The translations under genes and the position numbers were made by a program. The notes under the pieces are model-generated. The model saw only the letters and a program-made list of their open reading frames with translations. It searched no databases and was not told the DNA's origin. A DNA stretch of 40,560 nt. Source: Nemertoderma westbladi (Eukaryota > Animalia > Xenacoelomorpha). Shown here piece after piece: positions 9,576 through 40,302 of the stretch (within the stretch, counting starts at the first letter, position 1; each line of letters begins with the position of its first letter). The stretch covers positions 1-40,560 of the forward strand of contig JAUCBJ010003643.1 of the NCBI GenBank assembly GCA_032718475.1, read 5' to 3'.

Positions 9576-12500
9576 GTAAAATATGTTGTTCTAGAATGTT
9601 TTACATTGGTTTTCACAAAATATATTATTCTAGAATACTTGTCATTACTCTGAGTTAATTATACATTATTAACAATGCATTGAAGAAATTTAAGGCCAAC
9701 TATAATTCTTTAAATTTATTCATCAAATTTTCACAATTCGGGCACAGTATGTGGTATCTTTTGTAACAAATTATTCTAGAACACGCCTACTTCAATGCAT
9801 GTATCTGCGGTACCACATATGGGACAGTGTTATGCAAAAGGGTGTTAAGCCACAAAAGTTCAATTTGAGATAATCGATGTCAAAGATTTTAACATCCCTT
9901 GTGATCCTACTAATGATCCTACTAATCATACTGTTGTGTTTTTATAAGAAAACATTTATAGAAATTAAAGTATTTTTTCAAGTTATTGTGCTAGAATATA
10001 GCATTTTCTCCGAAATATTGATCAAAATGTGGCTTAACACTTTTGGAAAACTTCATATTTGGCAAAACGTTAAATTGTCAAAAGGTGTCATACTTGCAAA
10101 AATATGTCAAAAGATGTCAAGCCACATAATTTTTATGTGGTTAAATCTTTTTTTCAATATAATTTGTGGTTTAACACCCTTTTACTAATCACAAATCCAA
10201 ACTGTGGCTTAACTTTCTTGTATTTTTAAGGCATTTCTTCGTATTATTGGTCAATAGAATCTCATAATTAGGTAGATTGCACTTTCCTCTATCGAATGAT
10301 ACCAAAAACACCGTCCATATAATAACCCGTTTCCTTACCCTTTACTTTCCATTACAGAAGTTGAATGCCGTAATGGTGCGCCGTGGTGTAGATGTTATCC
10401 TGAACACGAACCTTATCCTTGTAGATGCGAGATTGGATACATACCGGATCCTTACCATATAGGATATTGTGTAGGTAGGTCAACCCATTGGATACATACC
10501 GGATCCTTACCATATATAGGATATTGTGTAGGTAGGTGAACCCATTGGGTACATACCGGATCCTTACCATATAGGATATTGTATAGGTAGGTGAACCCAT
10601 TGGCTACATACCATATAGGATATTGTGAAGGTAGGTGAACCCATTGGATACATACCGGATCCTTACCATATAGGATATTGTGTAGGTAGTGAACCCATTG
10701 GATACATACCGGATCCTTACCATATATGATATTGTGTAGGTAAGTGAACCCATTGGATACATACCGGATCCTTACCATATAGGATATTGTGTAGGTAGGT
10801 GAACCCATTGGATACATACCGGATCCTTACCATATATAGGATATTGTGTAGGTAGGTGAACCCATTGGATACATACCGGATCCTTACCATATAGGATATT
10901 GTGTAGGTAGGTGAACCCATTGGATACATACCGGATCCTTACCATATAAGATAATGTGTAGGTAGGTGAACCCATTGGATACATACCGGATCCTTACCAT
11001 ATATGATATTGTGTAGGTAAGTGAACCCATTGGATACATACCGGATCCTTACCATATAGGATATTGTGTAGGTGGGTGAACCCATCAATCTGGGGTCTAT
11101 ATGTAAGTGAACCTACGGAATTTGGCTATCGCCTTACGGTTATCTTGCATTTGTTCTCACCTATTCGCTCGGATACTTTTGAAGTGCAGCGCCATTTTCT
11201 CCTGATTGTTCTAGTCGACTAAACCCTGCCGCATGTGTAGGACATTGGATGATGAGTCTAGATTTTGCAGATGACCTTGGTCAACTCTACTGTAACTGAA
11301 CAGCTACCAATGCCTTTTGGATGAGTACGGAAGAACCAGCTTAAAAGGCTGGATTATTAGTAAACTTCGACTTACAACATAACATTAGAGTCCGAAAATG
11401 TGCATAGCTTGGGGGCGTTGAGCATGAGCATACCATGATGGTGCTAGCATATTTTGAGGCGCTGAGCATACCTTGGGGCGCAGAGCATACCTTGGGGGCG
11501 CTGAGAATACCTTGGAAGCGCTGAGCATACCTTGGGGCCCTGAGCAAACCTTGGGGTGCTGAGCATACCTTGGAGCGCTGAGCATAACGTGGGGGCGCTC
11601 AGCATACCGTGGGCGCTGAGCATATCTTGGAGCGCCGAGCATACCTTGTGGGCGCTGAGCATACCTTGGGGCGCTGAGCATAACGTGGGAGCGCTCAGCA
11701 TACCTTGGGCGCTGAGCATATATTAGGGCGCTGAGCATACCTTGTGGGCTCTGAGCATACCTTGTGGCGCTGAGCACATCTTGGGGCGCTGAGCACATCT
11801 TGGGGGCGCTGAGCAAACCTTGGGGTGCTAACTTGGTGCGCTGAGAATGACTTGTAATAAATTTGTCATTCCAGAATATTACATTAAATTAACGGTGAAG
11901 GGTTTCAATGTGTATTCGATTTTAGTACTTTATGGCGTTATGGCCCTCGTTTTTTTCATGACACTCGTTGCGCTGGTGTAATTTTTGATGACTTTATATA
12001 CCTACGCCTACGTGCCTCCTACAGGTTATCTCTGTGAGAGTGGTGTAGATGGATTTGTAGCTGAGAACGTATCAAATATTGACCCAACACTTCTGGCCTT
12101 GGATAACGATACAAAGATATGCGGAGATTGTGAGAACATGACAACAATCGAGGTTAGCGAGTTAACGGATTGTACTGTACAGTAGGTCTTGAAAGACTGT
12201 TATTTTTGTCATACCAATTAATTTTTTTTCACAAAATTTTGCTACAAAATTGATTAAATCACTGAGAGAGAGGTAACATCCATCTGCTTATAATTTATAT
12301 TAATATATACGGGACAAGGTGTATACGGGATAAGGAAGGTTAATAATATTGGGCGCAGCTACAGCGAAAGATCGATTACCGTAGCTCTCTAACTCTATAT
12401 CTTGGGATGACGTTATTGAAAGAAAAGGGAAAGGAGCAGGTTGTTACAGTAAAGTGCGAATAATATTATATACTTTATTACGTTTAGGCTCGCCTGCGGT

Positions 12501-21500: not shown

Positions 21501-24500
21501 AAGTTATCTATAACCAACTGGCCCCCCATTTATTCACCACACTTTTTCGATACTATGATAGAGTTTATTTTGTAGTTTTATTTGAATAGGAGAACATTTA
21601 CTTATAATTAAAGTTAATTTAAAAAAACTTAGGTAATTTTGCAATTATGAAATTAAATGTGGAATGCCTGTTCACCACCATGGGTGATCTTCCACAGTAA
21701 ACCCTTACACTCTGTTTCCTAAAGGAATGCCGGTTCACCACCATAGGTGATCTTCCACTGTAAACTCTTCCATTCTGTTTCCCAAAGGAAGGAATGCCTG
21801 TTCACCACCATGGGCGTGGGTGATCTTCCACAGTAAACCCTTCCACTCTGTTTCCTAAAGGAATGCCTGTTCAACACCATGGGTGATCTTCCACAGTAAA
21901 CCATTCTAATCTGTTTCCTAGTGGAATGCCTGGTCACCACCATGGGTGATCTTCCACAGTAAACCATTCCACTCTGGTTCCTAAAGGAATGCCTGTTCAC
22001 CACCATGGGTGATCTTCCACAGTAAACCCTTCCACTCTGTTTCCTGAAGGAATGCCTGTTCACCACCATGGGTGATCTTCCACAGTAAACCCTTCCACTC
22101 TGTTTCCTAAAGGAATGCCTGTTCACCACCATGGGTGATCTTCCACAGTAAACCCTTCCACTCTGTTTCCTAAAGGAATGCCTGTTCACCACCATGGGTG
22201 ATCTTCCACAGTAAACCCTTCCACTCTGTTTCCTAAAGGAATGCCTGTTCACCACCATGGGTGATCTTCCACAGTAAACCCTTCCACCCAGTTTCCTAGT
22301 GGAATGCCTGTTCACCACCATGGTTGATCTTCCACTGTAAACCCTTCCACTCTGTTTCCTAAAGGAATGCCAGTTCACCACCATGGGTGATCTTCCACAG
22401 TAAACCATTCCACTCTGGTTCCTAAAGGAATGCCTGTTCACGACCATAGGTGATCTTCCACAGTAAACCCTTCCACTCTGTTTCCTAAAGGAATGCCTGT
22501 TCACCACCATAGGTGATCTTCCACAGTAAACCCTTCCACTCTGTTTCCTAAAGGAATGCCTGTTCACCACCATGGGTGATCTTCCACTGTAAACTCTTCC
22601 ATTCTGTTTCCCAAAGGAAGGAATGCCTGTTCACCACCATGGGCGTGGGTGATCTTCCACAGTAAACCCTTCCACTCTGTTTCCTAAAGGAATGCCTGTT
22701 CAACACCATGGGTGATCTTCCACAGTAAACCATTCCAATCTGTTTCCTAGTTGAATGCCTGGTCACCACCATGGGTGATCTTCCACAGTAAACCATTCCA
22801 CTCTGGTTCCTAAAGGAATGCCTGTTCACCACCATGGGTGATCTTCCACAGTAAACCCTTCCACTCTGTTTCCTAAAGGAATGCCTGTTCACCACCATAG
22901 GTGATCTTCCACAGTAAACCCTTCCACTCTGTTTCCTAAAGGAATGCCTGTTCACCACCATAGGTGATCTTCCACAGTAAACCCTGCCACTCTGTTTCCT
23001 AAAGGAATGCCTGTTCACCACCATAGGTGATCTTCCACAGTAAACCCTTCCACTCTGTTTCCTAAAGGAATGCCTGTTCACCACCATGGGTGATCTTCCA
23101 CTGTAAATTCTTCCATTCTGTTTCCCAAAGGAAGGAATGCCTGTTCACCACCATGGGCGTGGGTGATCTTCCACAGTAAACCCTTCCACTCTGTTTCCTA
23201 AAGGAATGCCTGTTCAACACCATGGGTGATCTTCCACAGTAAACCCTTCCACTCTGTTTCCTAAAGGAATGCCTGTTCACCATCATGGGTGATCTTCCAC
23301 AGTAAACCCTTCCACCCAGTTTCCTAGTGGAATGCCTGTTCACCACCATGGTTGATCTTCCACTGTAAACCCTTCCACTCTGTTTCCTAAAGGAATGCCA
23401 GCTCACCACCATGGGTGATCTTCCACAGTAAACCATTCCACTCTGGTTCCTAAAGGAATGCCTGTTCACGACCATAGGTGATCTTCCACAGTAAACCCTT
23501 CCACTCTGTTTCCTAAAAGAATGCCTGTTCACCACCATAGGTGATCTTCCACTGTAAACCCTTCCACTCTGTTTCCTAAAGGAATGCCTGTTCACCACCA
23601 TAGGTGATCTTCCACAGTAAACCCTTCCACTCTGTTTCCTAAAGGAATGCCTGTTCACCACCATGGGTGATCTTCCACTGTAAACTCTTCCATTCTGTTT
23701 CCCAAAGGAAGGAATGCCTGTTCACCACCATGGACGTGGGTGATCTTCCACAGTAAACCCTTCCACTCTGTTTCCTAAAGGAATGCCTGTTCAACACCAT
23801 GGGTGATCTTCCACAGTAAACCATTCCAATCTGTTTCCTAGTGGAATGCCTGGTCACCACCATGGGTGATCTTCCACAGTAAACCATTCCACTCTGGTTC
23901 CTAAAGGAATGCCTGTTCACCACCATGGCTGATCTTCCACAGTAAACCCTTCCACTCTGTTTCCTAAAGGAATGCCTGTTCACCACCATGGGTGATCTTC
24001 CACAGTAAACCCTTCCACCCAGTTTCCTAGTGGAATGCCTGTTCACCACCATGGTTGATCTTCCACTGTAAACCCTTCCACTCTGTTTCCTAAAGGAATG
24101 CCAGTTCACCACCATGGGTGATCTTCCACAGTAAACCATTCCACTCTGGTTCCTAAAGGAATGCCTGTTCACCACCATGGGTGATCTTCCACAGTAAACC
24201 CTTCCACTCTGTTTCCTAAAGGAATGCCTGTTCACCACCATGGTTGATCTTCCACTGTAAACCCTTCCACTCTGTTTCCTAAAGGAATGCCAGTTCACCA
24301 CCATGGGTGATCTTCCACAGTAAACCCTGCCACTCTGTTTCCTAAAGGAATGCCTGTTCAACACCATGGGTGATCTTCCACAGTAAACCATTCCAATCTG
24401 TTTCCTAGTGGAATGCCTGGTCACCACCATGGGTGATCTTCCACAGTAAACCCCTCCACTCTGTTTCCTGAAGGAATGCCTGGTCACTACCATGGGTGAT

Positions 24501-27500
24501 CTTCCACAATAAACCCTTCCACTCTGTTTCCTAAAGGAATGCCTGCCTGTTCTCCACCATGGTTGATCTTCCACAGTAAACCCTTCCACTCTGTTTCCTA
24601 AAGGAATGCCTGTTCACGACCATAGGTGATCTTCCACATTAAACCCTTCCACTCTGTTTCCTAAAGGAATGCCTGTTCACGACCATAGGTGATCTTCCAC
24701 ATTAAACCCTTCCACTCTGTTTCCTAAAGGAATGCCTGTTCACGACCATAGGTGATCTTCCACATTAAACCCTTCCACTCTGTTTCCTAAAGGAATGCCT
24801 GTTCATCACCATAATAGGTGATCTTCCACAGTAAACCCTTCCACTCTGTTTCCTAAAGGAATGCCTGCCTGTTCTCCACCATGGTTGATCTTCCACAGTA
24901 AACCCTTCCACTCTGTTTCCTAAAGGAATGCCTGTTCACGACCATAGGTGATCTTCCACATTAAACCCTTCCACTCTGTTTCCTAAAGGAATGCCTGTTC
25001 ATCACCATAATAGGTGATCTTCCACAGTAAACCCTTCCACTCTGATTCCTAAATGAATGCCTGTTCACCACCATAGGTGATCTTCCACAGTAAACCATTC
25101 CACTCTGGTTCCTAAAGGAATGCCTGTTCACGACCATAGGTGATCTTCCACATTAAACCCTTCCACTCTGTTTCCTAAAGGAATGCCTGTTCATCACCAT
25201 AATAGGTGATCTTCCACAGTAAACCCTGCCACTCTGTTTCCTAAAGGAATGCCTGTTCAACACCATGGGTGATCTTCCACAGTAAACCATTCCAATCTGT
25301 TTCCTAGTGGAATGCCTGGTCACCACCATGGGTGATCTTCCACAGTAAACCATTCCACTCTGGTTCCTAAAGGAATGCCTGTTCACCACCATGGGTGATC
25401 TTCCACAGTAAACCCTTCCACTCTGTTTCCTAAAGGAATGCCTGTTCACCACCATGGGTGATCTTCCACTGTAAACCCTTCCACTCTGTTTCCTAAAGGA
25501 ATGCCAGTTCACCACCATGGGTGATCTTCCACAGTAAACCATTCCACTCTGGTTCCTAAAGGAATGCCTGTTCACGACCATAGGTGATCTTCCACTGTAA
25601 ACCCTTCCATTCTGTTTGCTAAAGGAATGCCTGTTCACCACCATGGTTGATCTTCCACAGTAAACCCTTCCACTCTGTTTCCTAAAGGAATGCCTGTTCA
25701 TCACCATAATAGGTGATCTTCCACAGTAAACCCTGCCACTCTGTTTCCTAAAGGAATGCCTGTTCACCACCATGGGTGATCTTCCACTGTAAACCCTTCC
25801 ACTCTGATTCCTAAAGGAATGCCTGTTCACCACCATGGGTGATCTTCCACTGTAAACCCTTCCACTCTGTTTCCTAAAGGAATGCCTGTTCACCACCATG
25901 GGTGATCTTCCACTGTAAACCCTTCCACCCAGTTTCCTAGTGGAATGCCTGTTCACCACCATGGTTGATCTTCCACTGTAAACCCTTCCACTCTGTTTCC
26001 TAAAGGAATGCCAGTTCACCACCATGGGTGATCTTCCACAGTAAACCATTCCACTCTGGTTCCTAAAGGAATGCCTGTTCACCACCATAGGTGATCTTCC
26101 ACAGTAAACCCTTCCACTCTGTTTCCTAAAGGAATGCCTGTTCAACACCATGGGTGATCTTCCACAGTAAACCATTCCAATCTGTTTCCTAGTGGAATGC
26201 CTGGTCACCACCATGGGTAATCTTCCACTGTAAACCCTAATATAAAACGTGATTACTTTCTGTAAAACTATTAGGTGCACCGATGGTTGGTGGTCTAATA
26301 TCCGGGTATTCAAACCGAACCCAGGTCACTGCGTTCGTTATTACTGCCAGCAGGAGGGTTGCTCAAGCGACTGGAGGTGCCAAGACTGTTCGTTAAACAG
26401 CGAACCCATACACTGTTCCTGTATGGCGGAGACACTGCCATACACATTCAAACCACGATTCTCTAAAAAATCACTAAATATATGTGTAGGTAAGAGAGTA
26501 CACATTATATATGCTAGAAAATATATATTTAATTAGTGATAATATTTATACATGAAAAAGTGACAATATACGTGAGAATATATATTAAATATATGAATGA
26601 TGAGTGTGTGAGTACATGGGGTAGTATCCTGGTTATGTTAGACTTTCGGTGTCGTTACATTAATATTTACTAACTCCACTCTATACAGATAAGGATGTTA
26701 CCCCACTTGGATGTTGGAGGACCAGCGGTACTGTGAATATACCCAGTGCAGAGGACGACCCCGAGAATAATTACCTCAGTATTGCAGCCAATCAGAGAAC
26801 AGATGATACCAAAGAGGCGCTATGTGGTTGGTCGGCGCTCAGGAGAGGTGGGAATAATAATCGATATTCAATGTGGTGTATCACCTTTTATAAAAGCAAA
26901 CAGTCGGCCGAAGCCGGAGGCGACCCGAAGGCTCCTCTTTCGATAGCTGCTACCCGAGGGTAGGGGTGGGCGCTACTCCTATCCCAAGATTTGCTCCCAG
27001 TTATTTAACTGGTACTCATTTTATCGACCCCAGTGGATGAAAGGCTGAGTGGACCCTGGCGGGGCTGAACCTACAACCAGTAGATTGCAGGCCCGGCGCT
27101 CAACCAACTGAGCTACCCCGCCGTCACCTTTTATACATTTTATTTATTATTAAATTTATTAAATAATTAAAAACAAAAGCTAAAATTTAGCAACTAATAA
27201 CGTTGATGACGTTTATATTTGTAAACTTTACTTCACAATGAGACTTTCCAAAAGTAACATATTGTAATAATTTCTATTGTTTTAGTGTCTATAATCATGG
27301 AGCTACTGGTCCGGTACCGGTACTCCTGTTTGCTTACAATTTAGGCTACAACGTATTTGGGTTGCGCGATGGAGGCCGCTGCCACTTTGGTGTAGCTGAC
27401 GACAACTCTTTGTACGGGAGGCACGAAACGTCCATCTCCGATGCGGATTGCGGAGTCGAAACATCTCGATTTGGTTCCCCGTTGCAGATGGCCGTGAACA

Positions 27501-28956
27501 GACAGAATAATATTTGGTGCGTTTATTTGTTATTTATATTTTATAGACTAAACAATAATAACTATTTAATTGGTGGAAAAAAAAAGTAGTTTTTTGTTGT
27601 CGAGCGATATTATTTGGCGAACGAAGGCGAGACAAATAAGAAAACAAGGAACAAATGTTACTTTTTACCGCCACTTATGTCGTTTTATTTGTTGTAAATC
27701 TTCTCTCACTTTTATCTGGGCCTATTTCAGCATAAATATCGTCCACCGAAGCTTCTTCCATAGTTAAATACGGGTATTACTATACCTTTGTCACCCAGAG
27801 TATGACCAAATTTTTTTATATGAAAAAGGCTTTTATAATATGAGGTTTTTTTTCTAGAACTAATATTTGACCTTCTGACAGTAGGATGGTATTTTTTTCC
27901 AAAAAATGCTCTATAAAAAAAGTGTTCTAGAAAAAATTGATAACTAACACGTGTAGAACTAGCTATTACTGTATAAAATATGGGAATTTATTCAACATTA
28001 TTGTTTTGTTGACAAAAAAATGTTATTTTTTGTCAAACTTGTTTAATTAACGACAATAAAAAGTGACAACAAATAAACGTATTTTAATGTACAACACATT
28101 CTAATATTGAGTCAACACTTTTCTAAAATTCAACACAAATTAAACATTTTCTCCTTTAATTTACTATAAAGTTGTTCACGCAACGTCAAATAAAAAAGTT
28201 AACTATTATTTGGTCGTAAGGCCAGTGATTACGCACAAAATCTGACGACTTATTCCAGTGAGGTCCCCCCTAGAACTATACTCCCCAAAGGAAACTCTCA
28301 TACTCATTTATATACCTTTTAACTTTAAGGATGCAAGGCAGATATGTACCCATGGCTGTGCCATCTTTCTATACTCATCAGACTTCGTGCCTAATCCCTG
28401 TCCTAACAGCCGAAATAAAACTTTACTTTTTTCTCTATAATCTGTTTCTCGGAAGGTACGGTAATCTCCGAGGTTGCTTCACGGGCAGCAGTTCCCTTCT
28501 GGACGCGGCGGCCACCACCTACGACGAGTGTATGAAGGCCGCTATAGCCGCCGGGGTTACGGGGGTTGAGTTCGGGTTGAAGGGAGGGACGCAATGCGTG
28601 ACCGGGTTGGATGAGGGCCAGTTGGAGATTAGCGCCTCCTGCGATGGAGCTAATGATATAGAAGTAAGTTAATCCTGCTAAATATCGTGTCTTAATTCAG
28701 TATTTATTCAGTATTTCACTATAGAAATAAAGACGTTTCTTCAATATGAACTCAAACATATTATGTTTTAGACGTTTAAGCGATTCACCGACGCCCAACT
28801 CATCACTAACACCGTCTCTACTGTGTTGGTACCGGTGCGGGATTGGGAATCGATCCCGTACCCCGACCCGGATGCGGGTCTGTCTTTCTTCAGGGACATA
28901 CCGATGCACGGTCTCTACTCGCTAGGGGATCAGTTCGGACCCCAACCAGATATCGG
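9465..28956 (+). CDS. multi-exon gene (16 exons seen, partial): EGF-like Cys-repeat, 2x WSC-like and Vps62-like extracellular protein
   Basis: All 16 exons have AG acceptors and GT (one GC) donors, and splice phases chain into one stop-free frame of ~2.4 kb. The first exon is phase 1, so the start lies upstream of the window. Confidence 0.85.
9835..10215. mobile_element. MITE-like fragment with inverted repeats aaagggtgttaagccaca / tgtggtttaacacccttt
   Basis: Inverted pair at ~9837 and ~10165, plus repeated tgtgg(c)ttaa motifs near 10028, 10136 and 10203; boundaries uncertain. Confidence 0.4.
10358..10474 (+). CDS. exon 2 (EGF-like) VECRNGAPWCRCYPEHEPYPCRCEIGYIPDPYHIGYCV
   Basis: attacag acceptor, G|gtaggt donor, 117 bp, phase 1-1. 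Confidence 0.85.
10432..11085 (+). repeat. 55-bp minisatellite (~12 copies) = exon 2 3' end + splice donor
   Basis: Unit attggatacataccggatccttaccatataggatattgtgtag|gtaggtgaaccc; the first unit overlaps exon 2. Confidence 0.95.
11408..11845. repeat. 19-21 bp GC-rich minisatellite (gcgctgagcataccttgggg), ~20 degenerate copies
   Basis: Direct reading; explains spurious ORFs 11341-11816. Confidence 0.9.
12025..12152 (+). CDS. exon 3 GYLCESGVDGFVAENVSNIDPTLLALDNDTKICGDCENMTTIE
   Basis: cctacag acceptor, gttagc donor, phase 1-0. Confidence 0.8.
12488..12623 (+). CDS. exon 4 ARLRCRCVDNRVSNIVNNVQFQGRMCVQGRSCPAEDIQPGPFFCT
   Basis: tttag acceptor, gtaatc donor, phase 0-1. Confidence 0.8.
13602..13985. 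mobile_element. foldback MITE (GGCAC...GTGCC ends)
   Basis: ggcac...aagcaaaagggtcc pairs with ggacccttttgctt...gtgcc; internal arm tggtgaatgctctagaaaattcataga pairs with tctacgaaatttctagaacgttcacca. Confidence 0.65.
14884..14997 (+). CDS. exon 5 (EGF-like) DECKPGYPNCKCALHKKLAIRKCLCETGFTIQWDQTCL
   Basis: tttccag acceptor, gtaagt donor, 114 bp, phase 1-1. Confidence 0.88.
15682..15807 (+). CDS. exon 6 (EGF-like) TQCDPGNPFCECIERGPNTTLCVCENGYTIDTRPEFLGHCR
   Basis: tgtag acceptor, gtgagc donor, 126 bp, phase 1-1. Confidence 0.88.
15937..16068 (+). CDS. exon 7 (EGF-like) YACEPGSSDPHCKQCPYSDSPKQDCRCDDGYEPTLFFGKRRCI
   Basis: ttcctag acceptor, gttagt donor, 132 bp, phase 1-1. Confidence 0.88.
   Translation, partial: ATPANLVPPTPIANNARTQTRPSRTADATTATNQLCFSGNEDA
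16169..16254 (+). CDS. exon 8 ICDTEGEIPQFSGQTSGCVVHPECLTFE
   Basis: ttttacag acceptor, gtttgt donor, phase 1-0. Confidence 0.78.
16382..16538 (+). CDS. exon 9 VAVNDHVNITCKPQCEPGYPHCLTVPGSQPGDPVTDADCDPGFATVWDRTCV
   Basis: Unusual ttgag acceptor, gtgagt donor, phase 0-1; the GC-rich, Cys-rich coding block is clear. Confidence 0.78.
17147..17310 (+). CDS. exon 10 (EGF-like) VECNEEFDHCVCPNSRDPTSCKCNITYVSTADGRCSDVCIPKRSPAVAYLNHCN
   Basis: cctcag acceptor, AAT|gtaggt donor, phase 1-0 matching the next exon. Confidence 0.85.
17289..20965 (+). repeat. 48/52-bp minisatellite (~75 copies) = exon 10 3' end + splice donor
   Basis: Unit ggcctacctgaaccactgtaat|gtaggtggaagtgcagacatatagta; the 52-bp variant has a cgac insertion; copies nearly identical. 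Confidence 0.97.
21270..21442 (+). CDS. exon 11 TRCDHNDDNCHCNPGYTAVFVNGKVDCEPVTCNHGNPNCLCNDDVSSVYWSPRETHC
   Basis: ttttag acceptor, phase 0-2, AG|gctagt (GC) donor. Confidence 0.82.
21661..26238. repeat. 63-bp intronic minisatellite (~72 copies) with higher-order variant structure
   Basis: Unit ggaatgcctgttcaccaccatgggtgatcttccacagtaaacccttccactctgtttcctaaa; recurring variant units. Confidence 0.97.
26275..26489 (+). CDS. exon 12 (R)CTDGWWSNIRVFKPNPGHCVRYYCQQEGCSSDWRCQDCSLNSEPIHCSCMAETLPYTFKPRFSKKSLNICV
   Basis: attag acceptor, gtaaga donor, phase 2-1; within ORF 26249-26536. Confidence 0.82.
26689..26847 (+). CDS. exon 13, N-half of WSC-like domain 1: DKDVTPLGCWRTSGTVNIPSAEDDPENNYLSIAANQRTDDTKEALCGWSALRR
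   Basis: tatacag acceptor; LGCW motif; donor G|gtggga (an alternative same-phase donor follows 26826). Confidence 0.72.
26893..27123 (-). mobile_element. tRNA-derived SINE (tRNA head, conserved core, LINE-like 3' tail) with 12-bp TSD
   Basis: Minus strand reads GGCGGGGTAGCTCAGTTGG (A box)...GGTTCAGCCCC (B box), then ACTCAGCCTTTCATCC...GGTCGATAAAATGAGTACCAG. TSD tcaccttttata at 26881-26892 and 27124-27135. Confidence 0.88.
27345..27516 (+). CDS. exon 14, C-half of WSC-like domain 1: GYNVFGLRDGGRCHFGVADDNSLYGRHETSISDADCGVETSRFGSPLQMAVNRQNNI
   Basis: tttag acceptor, gtgcgt donor, phase 1-2; WSC-type GYxVFGLxxGGxC motif. Confidence 0.78.
28456..28663 (+). CDS. exon 15, WSC-like domain 2: WYGNLRGCFTGSSSLLDAAATTYDECMKAAIAAGVTGVEFGLKGGTQCVTGLDEGQLEISASCDGANDIE
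   Basis: aag acceptor, gtaagt donor, phase 2-0; GCF...C...FGLxGGxxC motif. Confidence 0.8.
28772..28956 (+). CDS. exon 16, Vps62/DUF946-like start: TFKRFTDAQLITNTVSTVLVPVRDWESIPYPDPDAGLSFFRDIPMHGLYSLGDQFGPQPDIG
   Basis: ttttag acceptor, phase 0; SFFRxIPxxGxYSLGD motif. Ends at a gttggt donor (28957) or, if unspliced, at TGA 28979-28981. Confidence 0.68.
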
Positions 28957-30129
28957 GTTGGTGTTTCAAAAAATCATCTGAAACTACCGGTACCGACTGA
29001 CAGACTGTCTGATTTTTGACCAAACCTTGTTTTGTTTGATTCCATCAAGTAATGACCGAGTTATTAGCGATCATAAATTTACGATGACGACAGACGATGA
29101 CAGACAACTCGTTAATGGTAGCCACATACCAAGGCTCTCTTACTTCGTTGCTCGCCCCACAATGTACGTATAAATGTCAAGTTTTTGATTTGTTCCGTTT
29201 TTCTTCATTTTATTATGACCTGTTTAAATTCGTGCATGGACATTATAGGTACCAGTAGCTGTATGTTATGTAGATTACTGAGCTCAAGGGGCTTCAGTTA
29301 TTTAAAGCCAAATATAAATGTGATAATTAAGGGTCATGGCTACAATCCAATCAAAATTTATTGGGTTGTTAAATGAGATGCTCGCCATGACGTGGCGTCT
29401 TGTTCAATTTTCCAGTAGTTTTCCATGAAATAAAGTTTAAATTGTAATTACAGAACTGAAGAATGAAATGAAATGGTAACTGCAATTATAGATCATCGGT
29501 CTCTGATTGGTTAATGTAATTATGATTGAGTACACTGAAAAAATGGAACTCAGCTTATTCTTAAAAAAAGCGCTGTTTCTCAACAATAACCACAGTTTAA
29601 TCTCGTGACTTATTGAGCTGAGGTTATATTGAGAAAACAGCGCTTATTTATGAATAATAAAGTACAGCTTATTAACAAATTACAAACTGTGTTTAATTAA
29701 AAAAAAACACTGCTTTTTCTTAAAATAAATCATAGGTTATTTCATATTGATTATTGACAGTCAGGAATATAAACTGTGATTTTAAAAACAATTAAGCAGA
29801 GGTTAAATAATAAAAACTGTGCTTATATGGAATATCCAGGGGCAATAAATGGTGCTTATTTTCAAGATATCAATGCTTTTCCTTATAAAAACAGAGTTTA
29901 TTTCTATCTTGATTATGACAAGCCAGGAATATAAACTGTGCTTTTTTTACAAGCAGATACCACCCTCCCTGCATCCCAGATATGTTCCGCCATATTTATC
30001 CACATAGTTATGATGGGTAAGGGACAATAAACTAAAACATTTAACATCATATTATCTTTCTTAACATATTCATATTCATTCTTAACATATTACCATCTCC
30101 TTCTCCAACTTTAACAAACCTTTCAGTTA

Positions 30130-30421
30130 GGGTCCTGCGAATTTAGAATTTTTATTGAATTCGAAATTGGATGTCGAATTTGATAAATTCTAAAAGAAAC
30201 GATTTTGAATAAACAAAGGCCTAAAGTAATGAAGTCAAACGTGGCATTTTCGGATGCCCATTTTCATATCACATAATTTGAAACGAAATTAAGATTTTTT
30301 ACAGATCTGGATTCCTCATATAACGTCGAAAGTGCCCTTTTCCATTGATAAAAATCATGAAAATGGAGAAGCATAATACATAAAAATTCAAATTCGAAAA
30401 AAGTTCCAAATTCACAGGGCC
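30130..30421. mobile_element. small MITE-like inverted-repeat element nested in the CACTA 3' region
   Basis: ggtcctgcgaatttagaattttt pairs imperfectly with aaaaagttccaaattcacagggcc; no clear TSD. Confidence 0.4.
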
Positions 30422-30526
30422 AGTCCAACTATCATTAAAAACTCCACTAATAATATATTATGAATTCACAGCTGGCCAGTCCAACTATCATTATGATAAA
30501 CTCCAACTCCACCTAAAATATAATGT

Positions 30527-31876
30527 TCATTCCTCTTCTGTAACCGGTATGCTACTCGAAAGGACCTCATCAGAACAAATGATTTCATATTCGTCAGCAA
30601 TAGCTTCTGTTCCACGAATAAAGGCATTGGAACTTGTAGGCTTTGGTTGTGAGAGCTTTAAATTATCAAGGTATGGGACAATGTAGTCGGAGGTATGTTT
30701 AATCCATGCGTAATTGTTTGAGCCGAAAAAGAATACCCATTTAAAAGAATCTTCGTCATTTCTTGGCTTTGGAGCAGCTGCCCCCTCGGGAGGTACCTCA
30801 ATTCGCGCAGGCCAAAAAATATTGGTCTTCCTCTGGCGCGCCCAGACTAAAGCCTCTACTCCACACTCGACTTCTTCTTGTGTGTTATCTTCACTACCAT
30901 CTGCCGATGTATCTTGATATACTATTTCTTCTTCTTCTGAGCTACTTGATATATATGGTTCAGGGATAGTTTTCTTCCGTTTCCTTTTGGGTTGGTCACG
31001 CTGAGGCAATGCCGATTTTCTTGATATATATTGCTTCTGCAATTTAGCTGCATCAGCCAAAGTAGCCGATGATACAGAGACAGGCAGTTGAGCTTCTTTG
31101 TTAACAGTATTAACAGTGAAACTAGTCGCAGCTACAGAGACAGATGGCTGGGCTTCATCAGTAACCTCAGTCGTAATGTCTGACGTTGGGGGAATTACAA
31201 CAATGTTATCCTTTTCCTTACCTATCCTGGCCCCATGTGATTGTCTCCATTTATAATTATGTCGTGATTTAGAATATTCATGACGAAATACTAACATCAA
31301 GTCATTTCGGCGGTTCGAATGTTTCATCTTAAATTCAGTATAAACTTCACATACAGACCTTGCTATGTCATCTAAATTATTTATTTCTCGCATCTCAAAA
31401 TCCCTAACAAATGTTCGCATGCACATATTGTAAAAGTTTGTATTCGTGGTGGACTTAGACATCAACTCCTTTGAATTTATACTGTTTATGTCAATTTTTA
31501 AAACTGGTAAAATATTTTCACCTGCTTTAACTGGCAATGGAGGAATATAATACAGTTGGCCATTTGGAAGGGTGATTAGTTTTAACGTTGAGCGTAGCGA
31601 TTCACCATGATCATCTGACGACGATGGATCTATCAAATCTGAATCTATGGTTCCAGGTGTAAGTGGCAAAGGAACAGCTGGAGAACTCACACTTTTATTA
31701 CCAGGGATACTGCAGCCATTAACAGGACATATTAGCCAATGTTCCTTAATTATTAATCCACAGCATTTGCGAGGTGGTTCTGGTTCCACAATTTGAGAGA
31801 GACACTTTGGACACTGTTTATAACATGGTAGAAGTTCTTCACTGCAGTTGTTGACTCCACAGACTTTACTTTCCAT
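30527..31876 (-). CDS. transposon ORF2: N-terminal Cys-rich double zinc ribbon, helical middle domain, basic NLS-like motif, acidic tract, C-terminal PWWP domain (449 aa)
   Basis: Intact intronless ATG-TGA ORF. CGVNNC..CPKC..CC..CPVNGC; PKRKRKK; LVWARQRKTNIFWPARI...WVFFFGSNNYAWI matches the PWWP consensus. Confidence 0.88.
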   Translation of the reverse strand: MESKVCGVNNCSEELLPCYKQCPKCLSQIVEPEPPRKCCGLIIKEHWLICPVNGCSIPGNKSVSSPAVPLPLTPGTIDSDLIDPSSSDDHGESLRSTLKLITLPNGQLYYIPPLPVKAGENILPVLKIDINSINSKELMSKSTTNTNFYNMCMRTFVRDFEMREINNLDDIARSVCEVYTEFKMKHSNRRNDLMLVFRHEYSKSRHNYKWRQSHGARIGKEKDNIVVIPPTSDITTEVTDEAQPSVSVAATSFTVNTVNKEAQLPVSVSSATLADAAKLQKQYISRKSALPQRDQPKRKRKKTIPEPYISSSSEEEEIVYQDTSADGSEDNTQEEVECGVEALVWARQRKTNIFWPARIEVPPEGAAAPKPRNDEDSFKWVFFFGSNNYAWIKHTSDYIVPYLDNLKLSQPKPTSSNAFIRGTEAIADEYEIICSDEVLSSSIPVTEEE

Positions 31877-32057
31877 AATATTTATATAAGATATATATAT
31901 ATAATGTCAATATTATAATGTCAATCAATATATACAATAGTATAATTGTAAATATATAGACCTATTTACTAACTGCAAAATACACTATTATTATTACTGG
32001 TACTGTATAAAAATCGATGAGTGGGAATGGACTGATATCGAGAGAAAATTAATTTAT

Positions 32058-34595
32058 TCAGAAATTGTCAAATCGATACCGAACAACAAAAGAGTCAAAG
32101 TATGTGGATACACGAAGTTCAGAAGTTTCATCTAGTTCTGAATACCACAAGAACAAGTGAGTGGGAATTGAAGGTTCATCTATGACGTAACATCCGATAT
32201 GGGGAATGTAGGCCTTTGTTAATAATTGTTTGCACATAATAAGGCAGTCTATTCCAACTTCAAATAAGTATAAATCGCTGACCAGAACAAAACTTGGCAG
32301 ATTGCTAGAATTCGATTTATTTGGTACCAGTAGTACACTTTTATGTGCAACTAAACTATTACCCGCGTGTGAAATTTTTGAATAGCGTTCAAATCTATTG
32401 TCTCCAACAAAAGATAATTTGGTATGTTTATTTGAGCCAGATATGCGTGCATACAAAAACCCTGAATCATTTACCGTAAGGAAATAAGCAACATTTTCTT
32501 GATGGCGATTGGACAAATACATCGGAATGTTTTTGAAATTCTTTTGAATTTTAACCCATTTCTTGAGAATGGAATGCTGACCTTCAAAACGCATTGCCCA
32601 GTGACACCTCGGGGGGCCAAAATTGCGTATGTCTTGGACAATGTGCATCATGTAATGCAGTTTTGGAAATTCTTTTTCATATAATGTAAAATAACTCTTA
32701 CAATGCGTTTCTATTAACCACTCTAAAATGACCAGATTGGATGAACTGATAGTTTTAGATAAACATATTTCCATTATTTCATAAAGCTTCATAAAGCAGA
32801 GCCATTTGCTATCATCCTCTTTAAACAAGTCTCCTAAAACCACAGGAAGAGCTTTCATCAATATTAGCATTTGGACTGCTGTTTGTCGCAAAGAATAAAG
32901 ATCACTGGATTGCAGTTTGGCAACATCAATTCTACAAGGTATATCATTTTTTTCAACTTCAGAAAAATTATATGAAAAAATACGACAATTCAACTCTCTA
33001 ATGGATAACAATCCCCGCTCACAAACTGCATATTTCATCAACTGCTTTACTTCAGCAGCAACAACACCCTCAAGCATATCATGATGGAAATCATGAATGA
33101 TACAGCGTGTCATATCGAAATAAGGCATATCATATAATGGGCTTGGACCATTCAGACCAAAGGTAATTGAATTTGCCTTGCGTGTACTGGGTGGCAATGA
33201 AGGATCAATCACTGCATTTAGCTGCTCTTCATAATCAGCAGGTGTTCTCAATTGTAATGATTCAGTGTCAAAATATTTGGAAATTTCACCCTTGTGAACA
33301 GTGCAGCTTCGGCAAAAAGATATGGCTGCAGCGCTTTCTTTGAATCCTGCAACTAAAGCTGCAGCGGGGTTATCAGCCACAAAGCAGAGCAAAGCCCCAT
33401 AATAGATCTTACTATCAACGAAATAGCCTTGCTGCAAAACTATCATCGCATGCTTAAAATCTGATAAAATTTCAAAAATGTGGTCCCGCAAATCATATGT
33501 GTAGCACAATGCAGCAACGAAAACACATTGAAGTTTCGCCCTGTATTTCGGTCTCAAGTTTGATATTGTCCAATAAAATGCTCATATTTTATGAAATTTT
33601 GCATATGAACCAATAGGATTTGCAATTTCCATGTCATCAAAATACAACTGGAATTCTAAAAAAAAATTATCGTCATTTTCATTCAGGCAGAGTTGGAAAA
33701 GTGGATGATTCCTATAAAATTCCCCATCGCATACATACTGGTAATTTCTATCAGGCAATGGGAATTCTGCGGCTGCTGCAGCTGTGTACTTTTTCCGCAA
33801 TAATAATTCATTAAGTACTTCATTGTTTCTTAGCAGTTCTTTCAACTGAATTAGTAAAGGAACATAAGAGTAGCTTGATCCATTCGAAAGCCTAACCGGA
33901 ACAGCATCAACCATCCCACAATAATCAACATAAAATTTATGACGTTGAGATGTGGTGGACAGATTACAGAATAATCGATCAGCATCACCATAACCTCGAT
34001 CAGCTAAAAGTGTCTTAATATCATTGACAACATTTGTAAGGGCAGACTCAGTTATATCATTGTTATGTTTAGCTTTTAGTAAAAACTTTGCATCTAACAT
34101 AGAGCTATTAATATTATCACTGTTAGTGACATCCAATGAACTACTGGCACAACTGGGCAACATGGGAAGTTCAACACCTCCAGGATAATTGAAGTTCAAG
34201 TTACAGATATTTGAAGGATCCAAAGAGTCACCATCATTTTGTACAGGTAAATCTTCTGGAAAAAGTGGCATTGGTACAGTAGGAGTGCCGGTAGGCCCAG
34301 GCGTTGGTACTGGTTGAGGTAAGCGCACAAAGGGAGAACTGATGAATTTGTATATATTCTTAACGCCAATTCCATGAACCCTAAACATATGAAAACGCAG
34401 GGTGTCATACGAAGTTATAGTTTTTAAACACTTATGGCCTATATAGGTGGAGTTTTGAGCTAAACACATAACAGTAAATGATTTAGCATATTTATGATTA
34501 GTTAAGTATACATTCATAGCCGTGGTATACTCATTGTTGCAATCACTGGTATTTATATTATGTTCACTTGTGCTGCTCGTAACCATGGGTTCCAT
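32058..34595 (-). pseudogene. EnSpm/CACTA transposase (Tnp2/TnpD-like DDE) split by one in-frame TGA at 33582-33584
   Basis: ORFs 33582-34619 and 32058-33557 are in the same frame (24 bp apart). Motifs YFDDMEIANPIGS, HKI*AFYWTISNL, ADNPAA..GFKES..FCRSC, HDFHHDMLEGV, PKLHY..H, GP..HWAMRFEGQH; N-terminal C2H2-like finger. Confidence 0.88.
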
Positions 34596-36767
34596 CTTTG
34601 CTAACAGCGCAACACCCAAATACCAACACTGGTTGAGATATCAAACTTTTAAAATTGCTTCCCAATAACCCCTCGACAGCAAACATAAACGATAACGTAA
34701 CAATACATAAAAAAAACCAGGGTTCCAGGACGAAGGTCGACTTTCCGAATGGGGATATACGGTACTGTAGGACCGTAGTAGATATATAGAGGGCTTACAT
34801 CCTACGCCTACTGAAGTACTCTAAGGAACCCGTAAGTCAGAAGTCTGAAGCATTCCGTACACTGGTTGACTGGTACAGACTGACTGTAGGTTAGTAGACT
34901 AGGTAGGCTACCGCTGTACCGGCTGACCGCCATTACTTCTGTACTTACCGGGTTACCTTACCATGCTTCGTGCAGCATGATAAATGTTGAAAATAACTGT
35001 TGAAACTGTTCACAGGCCTTCCCGCATCATGAGAAATACTGAAACATAAAACTGTTCAGATGCCTTCGGGCAGCACATACAGACATACAGGCATAGCCTG
35101 AATCCTGATAGCTGCATAGTGCTTAGTGACGCTTAGTGAGCTAATGCATAGTGAAATTTTTTATGGCTAATTATTTTTCTCATTAAATTCAGAAATTGCA
35201 CACTAAGTAAGTCCTAAAGCACAAGCACACCAAGTACCTAGCAAGTAGGACTGTAGGAGGCTTATTATTTCAGTATTTCTTACAGTCTTATCTATTGTCA
35301 TTACCCTGTTACCGGTAGTCGGCAGACTGCCAGGGGTAGGTCTACTTACCGGTACTGACTTAGTGCTGTAGGCTAGTGCAAGTCTGAGCCGTGCTATCAA
35401 TTTTCTGCGCCTGCGTATGTCGCGCCGCGCTCTAAATTTTCTGCAACTGCGCGCGGCGCTGCATGGCGCTGCGCTGCGCTCTCAATTTTCTGATTTTCTG
35501 CGCCAGCTCCAAATTCTGGAAAAAATTGTGCGCCGAACGCGTTCGGCGTACATGCCCTACTTAGCAGAATGGATGGTCGGTATCGGTACGGGTACGGTAC
35601 CAAACGCTGCAACGGCTGAACGGTACCGGTACTGGTAGGCTACAATCTGACAATGCCTTCAGCCATGTGTACTGCGTTTCACAACTTTAATCGTTTCCAG
35701 TTTCTGTTGTGAAATACGGTACCGGTACCGGTAAACAGGTAAAGCCTGAAAGCAGTAAAGCCAGTACAATATTAAGGCTGTAATGCTGTAAGGCCTGAAA
35801 GGTAGAGCAAATAGCCAGATAGCCTACAGGTGTACAGGCTGACAGTGACAGGACAGCTGTACAGGCTGACAGGCAAATAAATGAAGCAATGCACTATTTG
35901 TCATCAACCGATTATATACACATACAGTATACACTATAGTACTATAATTATGACACAAGTAGTTGGTTGACACCATCCACACAATCAAGAATTTCATACA
36001 TATGTCTTAAATATGTCTATATTATTAATAATCTTTAGTTTGTTTCGCTCATTTGGAATAAATTTTTCCTTTTTTAATTTACATAAAGTTAAATTAATTT
36101 CATAATCTGCAACCCCCACCCAGTCAAACACTGTATTTAGCAGCATTATCGTTGGTATCGTTAAATTTTAACATGTTAATGTTAATTGGATTTAAAAACT
36201 GTCAACTTATAAATTTGTAGGCATCAATTGGACTAAAAGCTGATGATCGGCATGCAGTTATCATGTCTACTGCTTAAGGGCGAAATGTCCGATTGGAAAC
36301 GTTCACCCATTTCCATGTTCTACCATTCGGACTGAAACTTAGCCTAAATGTACATAAAGGACCTCATCTGTAATTCTTTAGTGTGTTGCTAGAAGGCGTA
36401 ATGACTGAAACTGAAACCCACCACTTAGAATTATTATTTTTACAAATTAATAATAAACATGACTTTTTAGAAACCGACTGACCATTACAAATGTAAGAAG
36501 CAAAGATTAATAAAATTAAACACAGTTTTCTTCGGATATCTCAGAGAATATGAATAAAGTTGTGGTTTTTATATAAGAACTGTTTGTATTATATTTAAAA
36601 GCGCAGCTTATTTTATTTCATTTGATTGGGTAATAAATAACCGCAGTTTGTTATTTTAATGGTTCCCGAAACTGTGGTTATGTCAAGTATAACCGGTGTT
36701 TAATTTTATAACCTACGTTTTAAACCTAAGGTTAAATTTATAACCTCTGTTGCGTTTTTTCAGTGTA

Positions 36768-37000
36768 TACATACAAGCCCAATTTTCCTATTGTTTAAAA
36801 TACAAGTACAAGCACAAACGGCACTGGTTAAGAGATTAAAATTATCGGATAGCTCATCCTTGATGTTTAGTGTGGTATATGGTATACCGGATTTGATAGC
36901 GATTAAAGCACCACCATGTGAGGATACACCATCGGGTTTACCTGGTCTTTCTGCACGAACTAAGTTATATTAAATAGATGGATGATGTTGTTATATTTTG
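36768..37000 (-). mobile_element. fragment of a non-LTR retrotransposon (CR1/L2-type) APE endonuclease
   Basis: Minus frame YNLVRAERPGKPDGVSSHGGALIAIKSGIPY...NRKIGLVCI resembles the Y..R.DR....GGGVLIAV...IY motifs; it stops at the CACTA terminus. Confidence 0.55.
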
Positions 37001-37163
37001 GATTTTGTATTAATATTAATTATGGTTAGAATTAAAAAATTTTGTTTGAATAATATTTATTTGATAATTAAATAAATATTTAAAATTTCCCGGAATCCAT
37101 CTCAAACCTTTGTTGGGCGTCAGGGACTGATTGTTGGGTAACACCTAAACTCTATCTCCATAG

Positions 37164-37327
37164 CGAACTACTGCATCAACCCTCAGTACGAGATCTCATT
37201 GGTTGATTCAGAAGATGACGAAGACGAGCTGTGTTCATTGGTTGTCGCGTTGCTCCAGAAACACCGTAGATTAAAGCGCTACCAGGAAGGTATCCCCTAT
37301 TTGGCGATTGGCTTTCACATATACGAG
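37164..37327 (+). CDS. calpain-family domain III (CBSW/C2-like) exon: NYCINPQYEISLVDSEDDEDELCSLVVALLQKHRRLKRYQEGIPYLAIGFHIYE
   Basis: NPQY, acidic loop, ALxQKxRR and IGFxIY calpain III motifs; ccatag acceptor, gtttgt donor, phase 1-0. Confidence 0.9.
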
Positions 37328-37695
37328 GTTTGTTGGCCCCCTTGTATTGGTCTGTTTCTGTTTATTAAGTGATTCAGTGACCATTCTGGTTACTGTTTCA
37401 ACGCTTCGAGATACTGGTTGAGCCGCGCACAACGTATTTCCGTTCAGTTGTATCTCTTTGATTATTCTCCTCAAGGTTGTTGTTTTTGCTTGATACTTTT
37501 TTTGATGAACTTTGTGTTACTTCTGTTTCTCTACTTTGTAGTATTTATATATCTTTTATATATCTTTATTATCTGTATTGGGCGATCGATTATAACTTAT
37601 GTTTGTTGTGGTTGATAGTCCCCCCCCCCCCCCCCCCCCCCCCCCATACAGCGTATCCGAGGATACTGTAAGTTTCGTTTTTCCGTTTATTGTAG

Positions 37696-37816
37696 TTGGA
37701 TCCTTCGATTCAGTTGCCGGTTAACGAACGTTTCTTTGGGGAACATCAACCGGTGGCGCGGTGCTCCGCATATATGGAATCACGGGAGAATACGAGGAGA
37801 TTCAAACTGGCCCCGG
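37696..37816 (+). CDS. calpain domain III exon: LDPSIQLPVNERFFGEHQPVARCSAYMESRENTRRFKLAP(G)
   Basis: FF...PVARS..Y...RE...RF.L.PG motif; tgtag acceptor, gtaagt donor, phase 0-1. Confidence 0.9.
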
Positions 37817-40302
37817 GTAAGTTAAAACTGGCACCGGGTAAGGACAAACTGGCCCGGGTAAGTACAAACTGGCCCCGGGTAAGTACAAACTGGCCCCGGG
37901 TAAGTACAAACTGGCCCCGGGTAAGTACAAACTGGCCCCGGGTAAGTACAAACTGGCCCCGGGTAAGTACAAACTGGCCCCGGGTAAGTACAAACTGGCC
38001 CCGGGTAAGTACAAACTGGCCCCGGGTAAGGACAAACTGGCCCGGGTAAGTACAAACTGGCCCCGGGTAAGTACAAACTGGCACCGGGTAAGTACAAACT
38101 GGCCCCGGGTAAGTACAAACTGGCCCGGGTAAGTACAAACTGGCACCGGGTAAGTACAAACTGGCCCGGGTAAGGACAAACTGGCCGGGTAAGTACAAAC
38201 TGGCCCCGGGTAAGTACAAACTGGCCCCGGGTAAGTACAAACTGGCCCCGGGTAAGTACAAACTGGCCCCGGGTAAGTACAAACTGGCCCGGGTAAGTAC
38301 AAACTGGCCCGGGTAAGTACAAACTGGCCCCGGTAAGTACAAACTGGCCCCGGGTAAGTACAAACTGGCCCCGGGTAAGTACAAACTGGCCCCGGGTAAG
38401 TACAAACTGGCCCCGGGTAAGTACAAACTGGCACCGGGTAAGTACAAACTGGCCCCGGGTAAGTACAAACTGGCCCGGGTAAGTACAAACTGGCCCCGGG
38501 TAAGGACAAACTGGCGCCGGGTAAGTACAAACTGGCCCGGGTAAGTACAAACTGGCCCCGGGTAAGGACAAACTGGCGCCGGGTAAGTACAAACTGGCCC
38601 CGGGTAAGTACAAACTGGACCGGGTAAGTACAAACTGGCCCCGGGTAAGTACAAACTGGCCCGGGTAAGTACAAACTGGCCCCGGGTAAGTACAAACTGG
38701 ACCGGGTAAGTACAAACTGGCCCCGGGTAAGTACAAACTGGCCCGGGTAAGTACAAACTGGCCCCGGGTAAGTACAAACTGGCCCCGGGTAAGTACAAAC
38801 TGGCCCCGGGTAAGTACAAACTGGCCCCGGGTAAGGACAAACTGGCGCCGGGTAAGTACAAACTGGCCCCGGGTAAGTACAAACTGGCCCCGGGTAAGTA
38901 CAAACTGGCCCCGGGTAAGTACAAACTGGCCCCGGGTAAGTACAAACTGGCCCGGGTAAGTACAAACTGGCCCCGGGTAAGTACAAACTGGCCCGGGTAA
39001 GTACAAACTGGCCCCGGGTAAGTACAAACTGGCCCCGGGTAAGTACAAACTGGCACCGGGTAAGTACAAACTGGCCCCGGGTAAGGACAAACTGGCCCCG
39101 GGTAAGTACAAACTGGCCCGGGTAAGTACAAACTGGCCCGGTAAGTACAAACTGGCCCCGGGTAAGTACAAACTGGCCCGGGTAAGTACAAACTGGACCG
39201 GGTAAGTACAAACTGGCCCCGGGTAAGGACAAACTGGCCCGGGTAAGTACAAACTGGCCCCGGGTAAGTACAAACTGGCCCCGGGTAAGTACAAACTGGC
39301 CCCGGGTAAGTACAAACTGGCCCCGGGTAAGTACAAACTGGCCCCGGGTAAGGACAAACTGGCCCCGGGTAAGTACAAACTGGCCCCGGGTAAGTACAAA
39401 CTGGCCCCGGGTAAGTACAAACTGGCCCCGGGTAAGTACAAACTGGCCCCGGGTAAGTACAAACTGGCCCCGGGTAAGTACAAACTGGCCCCGGGTAAGT
39501 ACAAACTGGCCCCGGGTAAGTACAAACTGGCCCCGGGTAAGTACAAACTGGCCCCGGGTAAGTACAAACTGGCCCCGGGTAAGTACAAACTGGCCCCGGG
39601 TAAGTACAAACTGGCCCCGGGTAAGTACAAACTGGCCCCGGGTAAGTACAAACTGGCCCCGGGTAAGTACAAACTGGCCCCGGGTAAGTACAAACTGGCC
39701 CCGGGTAAGGACAAACTGGCCCCGGGTAAGTACAAACTGGCCCCGGGTAAGTACAAACTGGCCCCGGGTAAGTACAAACTGGCCCCGGGTAAGTACAAAC
39801 TGGCCCCGGGTAAGGACAAACTGGCCCCGGGTAAGTACAAACTGGCCCGGGTAAGTACAAACTGGCCCCGGGTAAGTACAAACTGGCCCCGGGTAAGTAC
39901 AAACTGGCCCCGGGTAAGTACAAACTGCCCCGGGTAAGTACAAACTGCCCGGTAAGACAAACTGGCCGGGTAAGTACAAACTGGCCCCGGGTAAGTACAA
40001 ACTGGCCCCGGGTAAGTACAAACTGGCCCCGGGTAAGTACAAACTGGCCCCGGGTAAGTACAAACTGGCCCCGGGTAAGTACAAACTGGCCCCGGGTAAG
40101 TACAAACTGGCCCCGGGTAAGTACAAACTGGCCCCGGGTAAGTACAAACTGGCCCCGGGTAAGTACAAACTGGCCCCGGGTAAGTACAAACTGGCCCCCG
40201 GGTAAGGACAAACTGGCGCCGGGTAAGTACAAACTGGACCGGGTAAGTACAAACTGGCACCGGGTAAATTAAAACTGGACCCGGGACAGTACTACAAACT
40301 GG
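37803..40302 (+). repeat. 21-bp minisatellite (~120 copies) = calpain exon 3' end + splice donor
   Basis: Unit caaactggccccgg|gtaagta; 20-bp variants lack one C; the first unit overlaps the exon. Confidence 0.97.

Follow-up and report, generated by a model that had tools for sequence, protein, structure and literature searches.

The window, a stretch of 40,560 nucleotides of DNA from Nemertoderma westbladi, contains a DNA transposon of 7,233 bp (29533–36765) with two genes, both on the minus strand. On the plus strand, TA precedes CACTGAAAAAA, which begins at 29533, and TA follows TTTTTTCAGTG, which ends at 36765. The element and its immediate surroundings comprise the following features.

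27287–27519, plus strand: exon-like piece
28448–28664, plus strand: exon-like piece ending at GT
28772–28957, plus strand: exon-like piece ending at a GT donor, 575 bp before the element
29531–29532: left target duplication TA, from the sequence; other insertion flanks in runs X1–X3 also join at 29531
29533–29543, plus strand: left terminal inverted repeat, 11 bp exact, or 28 bp at 82% with the TA
29578–29940: left subterminal repeats, AAACTGTG five times in both orientations, plus variants
30527–31876, minus strand: second gene (ORF2), 449 aa, single exon
30590–30850, minus strand: PWWP domain, GLYR1/NPAC-like, aa 343–429
30863–30964, minus strand: acidic tract, aa 305–338
30971–30991, minus strand: PKRKRKK, aa 296–302, NLS-like with a putative function
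31241–31456, minus strand: basic helical middle domain, approximately aa 141–212, candidate DNA-binding part
31712–31861, minus strand: Cys-rich N terminus, aa 6–55, double-zinc-ribbon–like
31877–32057, minus strand: AT-rich spacer of 181 bp with TATA-like runs and one acceptor-like site TTTTGCAG
32058–34595, minus strand: transposase, 845 codons, D320-D408-C428xxC431-H647xxxH651-E671
34884–35795: high-copy repeats nested in the 5′ noncoding part, upstream of the transposase, contig depth in the thousands
36521–36676: right subterminal repeats, AAACTGTG twice plus a variant
36755–36765, minus strand: right terminal inverted repeat
36766–36767: right target duplication TA
Approximately 37142–37328, plus strand: calpain domain III exon, Pfam E 7e-12

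An initial annotation of the window had placed an intact ORF between CACTG termini, on the same strand as the transposase. This arrangement holds, with the termini at 29533 and 36765 and a gap of 181 bp to the end of the transposase. The target duplication, which had been overlooked, is 2 bp (TA) and not 3 bp as in plant CACTA elements. Within the left 480 bp, there are five occurrences of the motif AAACTGTG, and within the right 330 bp two, compared with a single one in approximately 11 kb of flanking DNA. Observed over expected CpG amounts to 0.67 for ORF2 and 0.59 for the transposase, compared with 1.03 in the adjacent flank and 0.76 in another host stretch. The first 50 to 70 bases of the left end (29533–29600) are common to other families and diverge thereafter, with loose ends at 29583 and 29600.

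Surroundings of the element

The position "among spliced genes" initially given to the element stands insofar as exon-like plus-strand pieces lie on either side of it, but only loosely, as the window is full of tandem arrays and repeats. The element may lie antisense inside an intron or between genes. The calpain domain III exon may belong to a repeated family, since a 3,147-base contig of run X4 with a depth of 304 matches it. The minus-strand flank 36766–36969, with YNLVRAER..SHGGALIAIKS..IGLVCI ending at the TA, and possibly 29150–29532 may represent a decayed LINE endonuclease remnant; neither Pfam nor BLASTP supports this reading. The element seems to interrupt the remnant.

Exon-like pieces, some of them Cys-rich, are strewn over 9465–28957 on the plus strand and belong to a long spliced gene whose introns are taken up by tandem arrays; Pfam assigned no family to the pieces scanned. 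The minus strand at 4395–8613 contains an LTR-retrotransposon gag-pol frame of 1,121 aa that encodes protease, RT, and RNase H, and behind it a piece of an integrase. A long fold-back at 1587–4229 has nested inverted arms of 75 to 340 bp at 82 to 100%. Tandem arrays occupy 17240–20560, 21660–26220, and 37790–40290 with units of 48/52 bp, 63 bp (with higher-order steps of 73 bp), and 21 bp, and very high-copy short repeats, again with contig depth in the thousands, occupy 28977–29163.

The transposase and its placement

In the window copy, codon 338 of the 845 transposase codons is an in-frame TGA (33582–33584), which the initial annotation had likewise passed over. D320, D408, C428/C431, H647/H651, and E671 are invariant in all eight aligned transposases. 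C(2)C, H(3–4)H, and the catalytic motifs define the CMCT clade of EnSpm, Mirage, Chapaev, Transib, and their kin (PMC12730594), and the window transposase possesses all of them. The ends CACTG..CAGTG and the TA agree with the 5′-CA..TG-3′ termini and the duplications of 2 to 5 bp of this clade, and the CAC..GTG termini with subterminal repeats agree with EnSpm/CACTA elements. The label CACTA/EnSpm originally given is upheld for a two-gene DNA transposon of the CMC/EnSpm type, but not with respect to the 3-bp duplication found in plant and rust-fungus EnSpm elements: it is 2 bp here and in L005, one of the distant relatives described below. Since the 3-bp duplication is missing, the transposon is filed only as EnSpm-like within CMCT, by motifs and ends and not by a tree. 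Some animal EnSpm families have 2-bp duplications; our literature search returned nothing on such duplications in animal EnSpm families.

The sole Pfam match of the window transposase is Plavaka (E 6e-5, below the cut-off), and its relatives match Transposase_21 and DUF4218, also below the cut-off. The NCBIfam search gave no match, and the viral contigs searched matched neither the transposase nor the PWWP domain. A 1,172-base contig of X4 matches two short transposase motifs (33063–33662) in the right spacing and represents a diverged transposase family of the same species.

Architecture of ORF2

ORF2 is open over 449 aa and needs no intron, as annotated, and an open frame of this length is expected by chance at approximately 1e-14 at the base composition of the element. 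From the N to the C terminus, it consists of the Cys-rich N terminus, a basic helical stretch, a low-complexity linker, PKRKRKK, the acidic tract with no basic and 12 acidic residues, and the PWWP domain. The motif and the acidic tract are present as first described. The N-terminal zinc ribbon is borne out by nine Cys in aa 6 to 55 but not by Pfam, where DZR is reached only at E 0.068, below the cut-off.

A search of 7,408 candidates of 246 to 786 aa detected no homologue of ORF2 at E ≤ 0.001. Among 1.84 billion representatives, six matches were obtained, five of them to the PWWP domain only; the sixth, a repeat protein, aligned through Cys spacing and was discarded. The ESM Atlas gave no match for aa 1 to 230 or aa 138 to 218. 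Outside the PWWP domain, ORF2, thus, has no homologue in these three collections, and no similarity to GLYR1 was found there either. A single-sequence AlphaFold model was unusable (pLDDT 35.8), and a wide fold search with it returned nothing at Z ≥ 5. The TnpA/SAMD3-like homology suggested for the middle domain found no support, as homology tests were negative: hhalign against the animal second gene described below gave E 0.37 with a narrow profile. Equating the middle domain with the helical domain of that gene was rejected because the control failed, with 244 of 1000 and, for hhalign, 41 of 100 shuffles scoring as high.

The PWWP domain

The C-terminal PWWP domain annotated from the sequence is confirmed by PF00855 at E 1.8e-9, its 38.4 bits exceeding the cut-off of 25.6. 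A model of aa 333 to 439, built from a six-sequence alignment, reaches a pLDDT of 83.5, and Foldseek lists nothing but PWWP domains in the top rows for it. Both marks of PF00855 membership are, hence, found, namely a profile match above the cut-off and a five-strand barrel plus helices. As the rows of the alignment are themselves PWWPs, the model speaks for compatibility with the fold more than for its independent discovery. All nine columns that are invariant in five host-type PWWPs are kept in ORF2, and its core is 36 to 46% identical to them, compared with 35 to 56% among those five.

The five PWWP matches score 36 to 38 bits. Two are named GLYR1, one shows the full GLYR1 domain order, one is cut short where the dehydrogenase-like domain begins, and the fifth is a different PWWP protein; four of the five are, thus, GLYR1 by architecture or name. 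Human HDGF/LEDGF chains score 18 to 22 bits. Hence, a host gene of the GLYR1/NPAC/NDF type is the likely donor class, judged by best match and not by a tree, and the LEDGF label of the initial annotation finds no support. ORF2 itself does not have the N-terminal PWWP and C-terminal dehydrogenase-like domain of the GLYR1/NPAC family, as only its PWWP matches.

In HRP3, the methyl-lysine cage is formed by M19, Y22, W25, and F48, and Y22A cuts H3K36me3 binding 15-fold; PWWPs bind DNA and H3K36me jointly, and DNA binding dominates HRP3 recruitment (PMC6547440). By alignment only, the equivalent positions in ORF2 are Q348, N352 (T351 in MAFFT), W355, and F383, with two of four kept. An incomplete cage had been suspected from the Asn at the Tyr/Phe position; two positions are lost, not one. 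The canonical Met/Tyr/Trp/Phe cage that reads H3K36me2/3 is not present in the ORF2 sequence: the PWWP fold is retained, and the canonical pocket is half gone. Reading of H3K36me3 is doubtful, since the Met and Tyr positions are Gln and Asn/Thr, and Y22A alone is so costly to HRP3. Y389 and W391 lie near the cage. The K18-equivalent DNA contact of loop 1 is kept as R347, and loop 2 has fewer basic residues. With 11 basic and 10 acidic residues versus 12 to 17 and 7 to 10 in the five matches, the domain carries almost no net charge.

Copies of the element in Nemertoderma westbladi

Copies were surveyed in the contigs of four runs (X1–X4) of the same species, from three samples and three studies. 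X1 is possibly the source of the window; without it, the survey comprises three runs from two samples. ORF2 is open and covered at >99% identity in all four runs, with Q243H (X3 and X4) as the one coding change. One X3 contig spans both genes with five changes, a 4-base gap in the spacer, and no frameshift, and its codon 338 of the transposase is GGA (Gly); an open allele of the transposase, hence, exists. In each of X1 to X3, the left end is joined to two or three other flanks, again at the TA. A joint from 29815 to 36651, present in three of four runs, marks a deletion derivative of approximately 399 bp if both ends are kept. Contig cover has holes, with none over the transposase in X4 and none at the left flank 29250–29437 in X2 to X4. 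In X1 and X2, the depth over ORF2 and the 3′ end of the transposase is approximately double that over the 5′ part, a hint that a second, truncated copy exists. These features of the contig cover were kept out of the evidence.

A diverged relative at high depth (40–225) in X1 to X3 matches the PWWP core, with 24 differences over 209 bp in X2; the start of ORF2 is matched by a separate contig, with six differences over 59. Alignment at ≥80% is confined to these two parts, and the X3 contig with the diverged PWWP extends 553 bases beyond without aligning at 80%. We infer that both pieces stem from one related element; depth is herein no copy number. The diverged PWWP is damaged by W345C, F384L, and frameshifts in X1 and X3. 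For 19 of the 24 differences, changes fall on 13 of 162 nonsynonymous and six of 42 synonymous sites; the resulting pN/pS of approximately 0.56 gives no significant sign of the purifying selection on ORF2 that had been proposed as a check (Fisher p 0.23). With ORF2 near identical in all four runs and a diverged PWWP piece at high depth, the capture of the PWWP is likely older than the window copy and not a one-off. Restriction of ORF2 to this one copy, which the initial annotation had named as evidence against its proposal, is unlikely in view of the runs.

Distant relatives

A metagenome scan yielded 14 loci (L001–L014), largely of one clade, from 508 candidate stretches. Their transposases are 25 to 32% identical to that of the window in the six loci aligned, which makes them distant relatives. 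None of the 14 contains a PWWP, so that the expected linkage of transposase and PWWP was not recovered at this distance. Two of the 14 are complete between CACTG(C/T)AAAAAG ends (L002, 620–10837; L005, 124–8818); the duplication of L005 is AG (2 bp), and the flanks of L002 do not match. The right end is visible in six loci and lies within 1.5 kb of the transposase in five, with no long ORF there. Seven of the 14 carry an exon of a spliced second gene, which lies upstream in head-to-head orientation and contains a domain matching an NCBI-named protein from the coral Oculina patagonica. The conserved second gene of L002 and L005 (spliced product P0020) belongs to no Pfam family. Its helical domain aligns by eye with the middle of ORF2, not above shuffles.

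Possible roles of ORF2

The reading that we tentatively prefer is a two-gene EnSpm/CMC-type transposon in which ORF2 is a TnpA-like helper with a PWWP likely captured from a host gene of the GLYR1/NPAC type, binding the ends of the element and gripping nucleosomes. Herein, the half of ORF2 with the zinc ribbon and the basic helices would bind the AAACTGTG repeats or the transposase. The PWWP would contact nucleosomal DNA via R347/R349/K350 with little H3K36me specificity and would, thus, hold the transposon complex on nucleosomes; such low specificity would tether the element to chromatin in general and not aim it sharply at gene bodies. In maize En/Spm, TnpA binds the subterminal repeats. The helper role is supported by the terminal inverted repeats, the TA duplication, the catalytic motifs, and AAACTGTG being found seven times at the ends versus once outside, by the recovery of ORF2 in all four runs, of an open transposase in X3, and of the deletion derivative in three runs, and by a PWWP with its nine invariant columns and R347, this core and the ORF2 start being the only parts alignable at ≥80% to the diverged relative. 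In addition, CACTA ORF2 proteins help transposition in some families (PMC4158355). Against it stand the p value of 0.23 for pN/pS, the broken diverged PWWP, the less basic charge of the domain, the zero of 14 relatives with a PWWP, and a middle domain with no homologue detected.

A rather unlikely alternative is that a GLYR1-type PWWP exon was captured in frame long ago and is decaying, dispensable for any function of ORF2. The loss of two cage positions, the reduced basic residues of loop 2, the spread of a diverged relative with a broken PWWP, a pN/pS not different from 1, and the 14 distant relatives without a PWWP are consistent with it. However, 449 codons have remained open with the domain core intact, although the adjoining transposase already has a stop, and no other part aligns with the diverged relative as well as the PWWP core does. 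Moreover, a trans-acting helper need not stay intact in nonautonomous copies.

It is improbable that ORF2 binds its own element and maintains its transcription or escape from silencing, like NDF/GLYR1 or VANC, with the acidic tract and the PWWP loosening or occupying nucleosomes. The family-specific end repeats recall the target motif of VANC (PMC6719617), and GLYR1, located on transcribed gene bodies, destabilizes nucleosomes and aids elongation (PMC6004073, PMC12112590), but ORF2 does not match GLYR1 outside the PWWP. Likewise, CpG is low in ORF2 and the transposase relative to the adjacent flank, but the other host stretch is low too.

A similarly small chance is given to the proposal of the initial annotation, a two-component transposon with a LEDGF-like factor, in which ORF2 would link the transposase with nucleosomes marked by H3K36me2/3 and direct insertion into gene bodies. 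The two genes, the true PWWP, and the other copies stand; the likeness to LEDGF finds no support, as the best matches are of the GLYR1/NPAC type. In its favor, the host member of this class of PWWP fold binds H3K36me3 across transcribed genes (PMC6004073, PMC12112590), W355 and F383 are kept with Y389/W391 nearby, and 575 bp separate the element from the end of an exon-like piece with a GT donor; yet Gln and Asn/Thr occupy the Met and Tyr positions of the cage, the latter at a site where substitution costs HRP3 15-fold (PMC6547440), and the single known insertion site sits in repeat-rich DNA. No more probable is an element encoding its own LEDGF, an adaptor joining the ends to a remodeled GLYR1-derived PWWP and steering insertions into transcribed gene bodies, in which Y389/W391 would replace the lost Tyr or the pocket would have a new ligand.

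Comparison with known systems

Like maize En/Spm and other plant CACTA elements, the transposon has two genes between CACT(A/G) ends, a DDE transposase, repeated subterminal motifs, and an ORF2 as putative helper (PMC4158355). Unlike them, it has a TA instead of a 3-bp duplication, CACTG ends, two single-exon genes, and a PWWP in ORF2, for which no TnpA homology was detected. The EnSpm-like loci L001 to L014 share the related transposase, the CACTG-type ends, and, in L005, a 2-bp duplication, whereas their second gene is spliced, upstream, head-to-head, and devoid of a PWWP, with no significant homology to the middle of ORF2.

With the PWWPs of GLYR1/NPAC/NP60/NDF, its best matches, ORF2 shares the patterns xxFFGSxNYAW and WP..I..PP. 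In contrast to GLYR1, its PWWP is C-terminal and not N-terminal, a dehydrogenase-like domain is absent, the cage Met and Tyr/Phe are replaced, and one extra residue precedes WP. LEDGF/p75, the lentiviral integrase tether, has the PWWP fold in common with ORF2 and, as an idea, the reader-guided integrating enzyme. However, it is a host protein, whereas ORF2 is encoded by the element; no integrase-binding domain was detected in it, and its score against LEDGF is below that against GLYR1.

Host reader domains on mobile elements are also found in chromodomain Gypsy elements (MAGGY), PHD fusions, and hAT-chromo elements, but these captured readers are mostly Chromo or PHD and are fused to TE domains in one gene (10.1101/2021.11.30.470311). 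The 823 fused transposon–reader gene models described, mostly PHD and chromo, represent recurrent capture, and readers of active chromatin seem rare among transposon-borne readers (10.1101/2021.11.30.470311). ESTA/Plavaka elements (fungal CMCT) resemble the window element in C(2)C, H(3–4)H, CA..TG ends, and TA/2-bp duplications, and their TET/JBP cargo also acts on chromatin or DNA marks (PMC12730594). Plavaka differs in its TGT or CATCA ends and its dioxygenase cargo (PMC12730594).

The capture of chromatin readers by transposons is, hence, already known, and a PWWP in an EnSpm/CACTA element is new within the literature searched. That search, mostly of titles and abstracts and with Repbase and most subscription journals outside it, returned no such case, and none appears in the portion of PMC11244446 covered. 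The reader-fusion section of 10.1101/2021.11.30.470311 makes no reference to PWWP, and cases may be contained in the paper's Supplementary Table 6 (single-gene fusions).

If the PWWP proves a passenger, the element represents an ordinary capture. A PWWP from an elongation factor would instead mean that the transposon maintains, as a separate helper gene, a domain that reads gene-body chromatin. As the system is small, with two single-exon genes, an open transposase allele, and a natural mini-element of 0.4 kb, the question of whether a transposon carries its own chromatin tether is directly testable with it. The element also gives a handle on the function of the second genes of animal EnSpm transposons.
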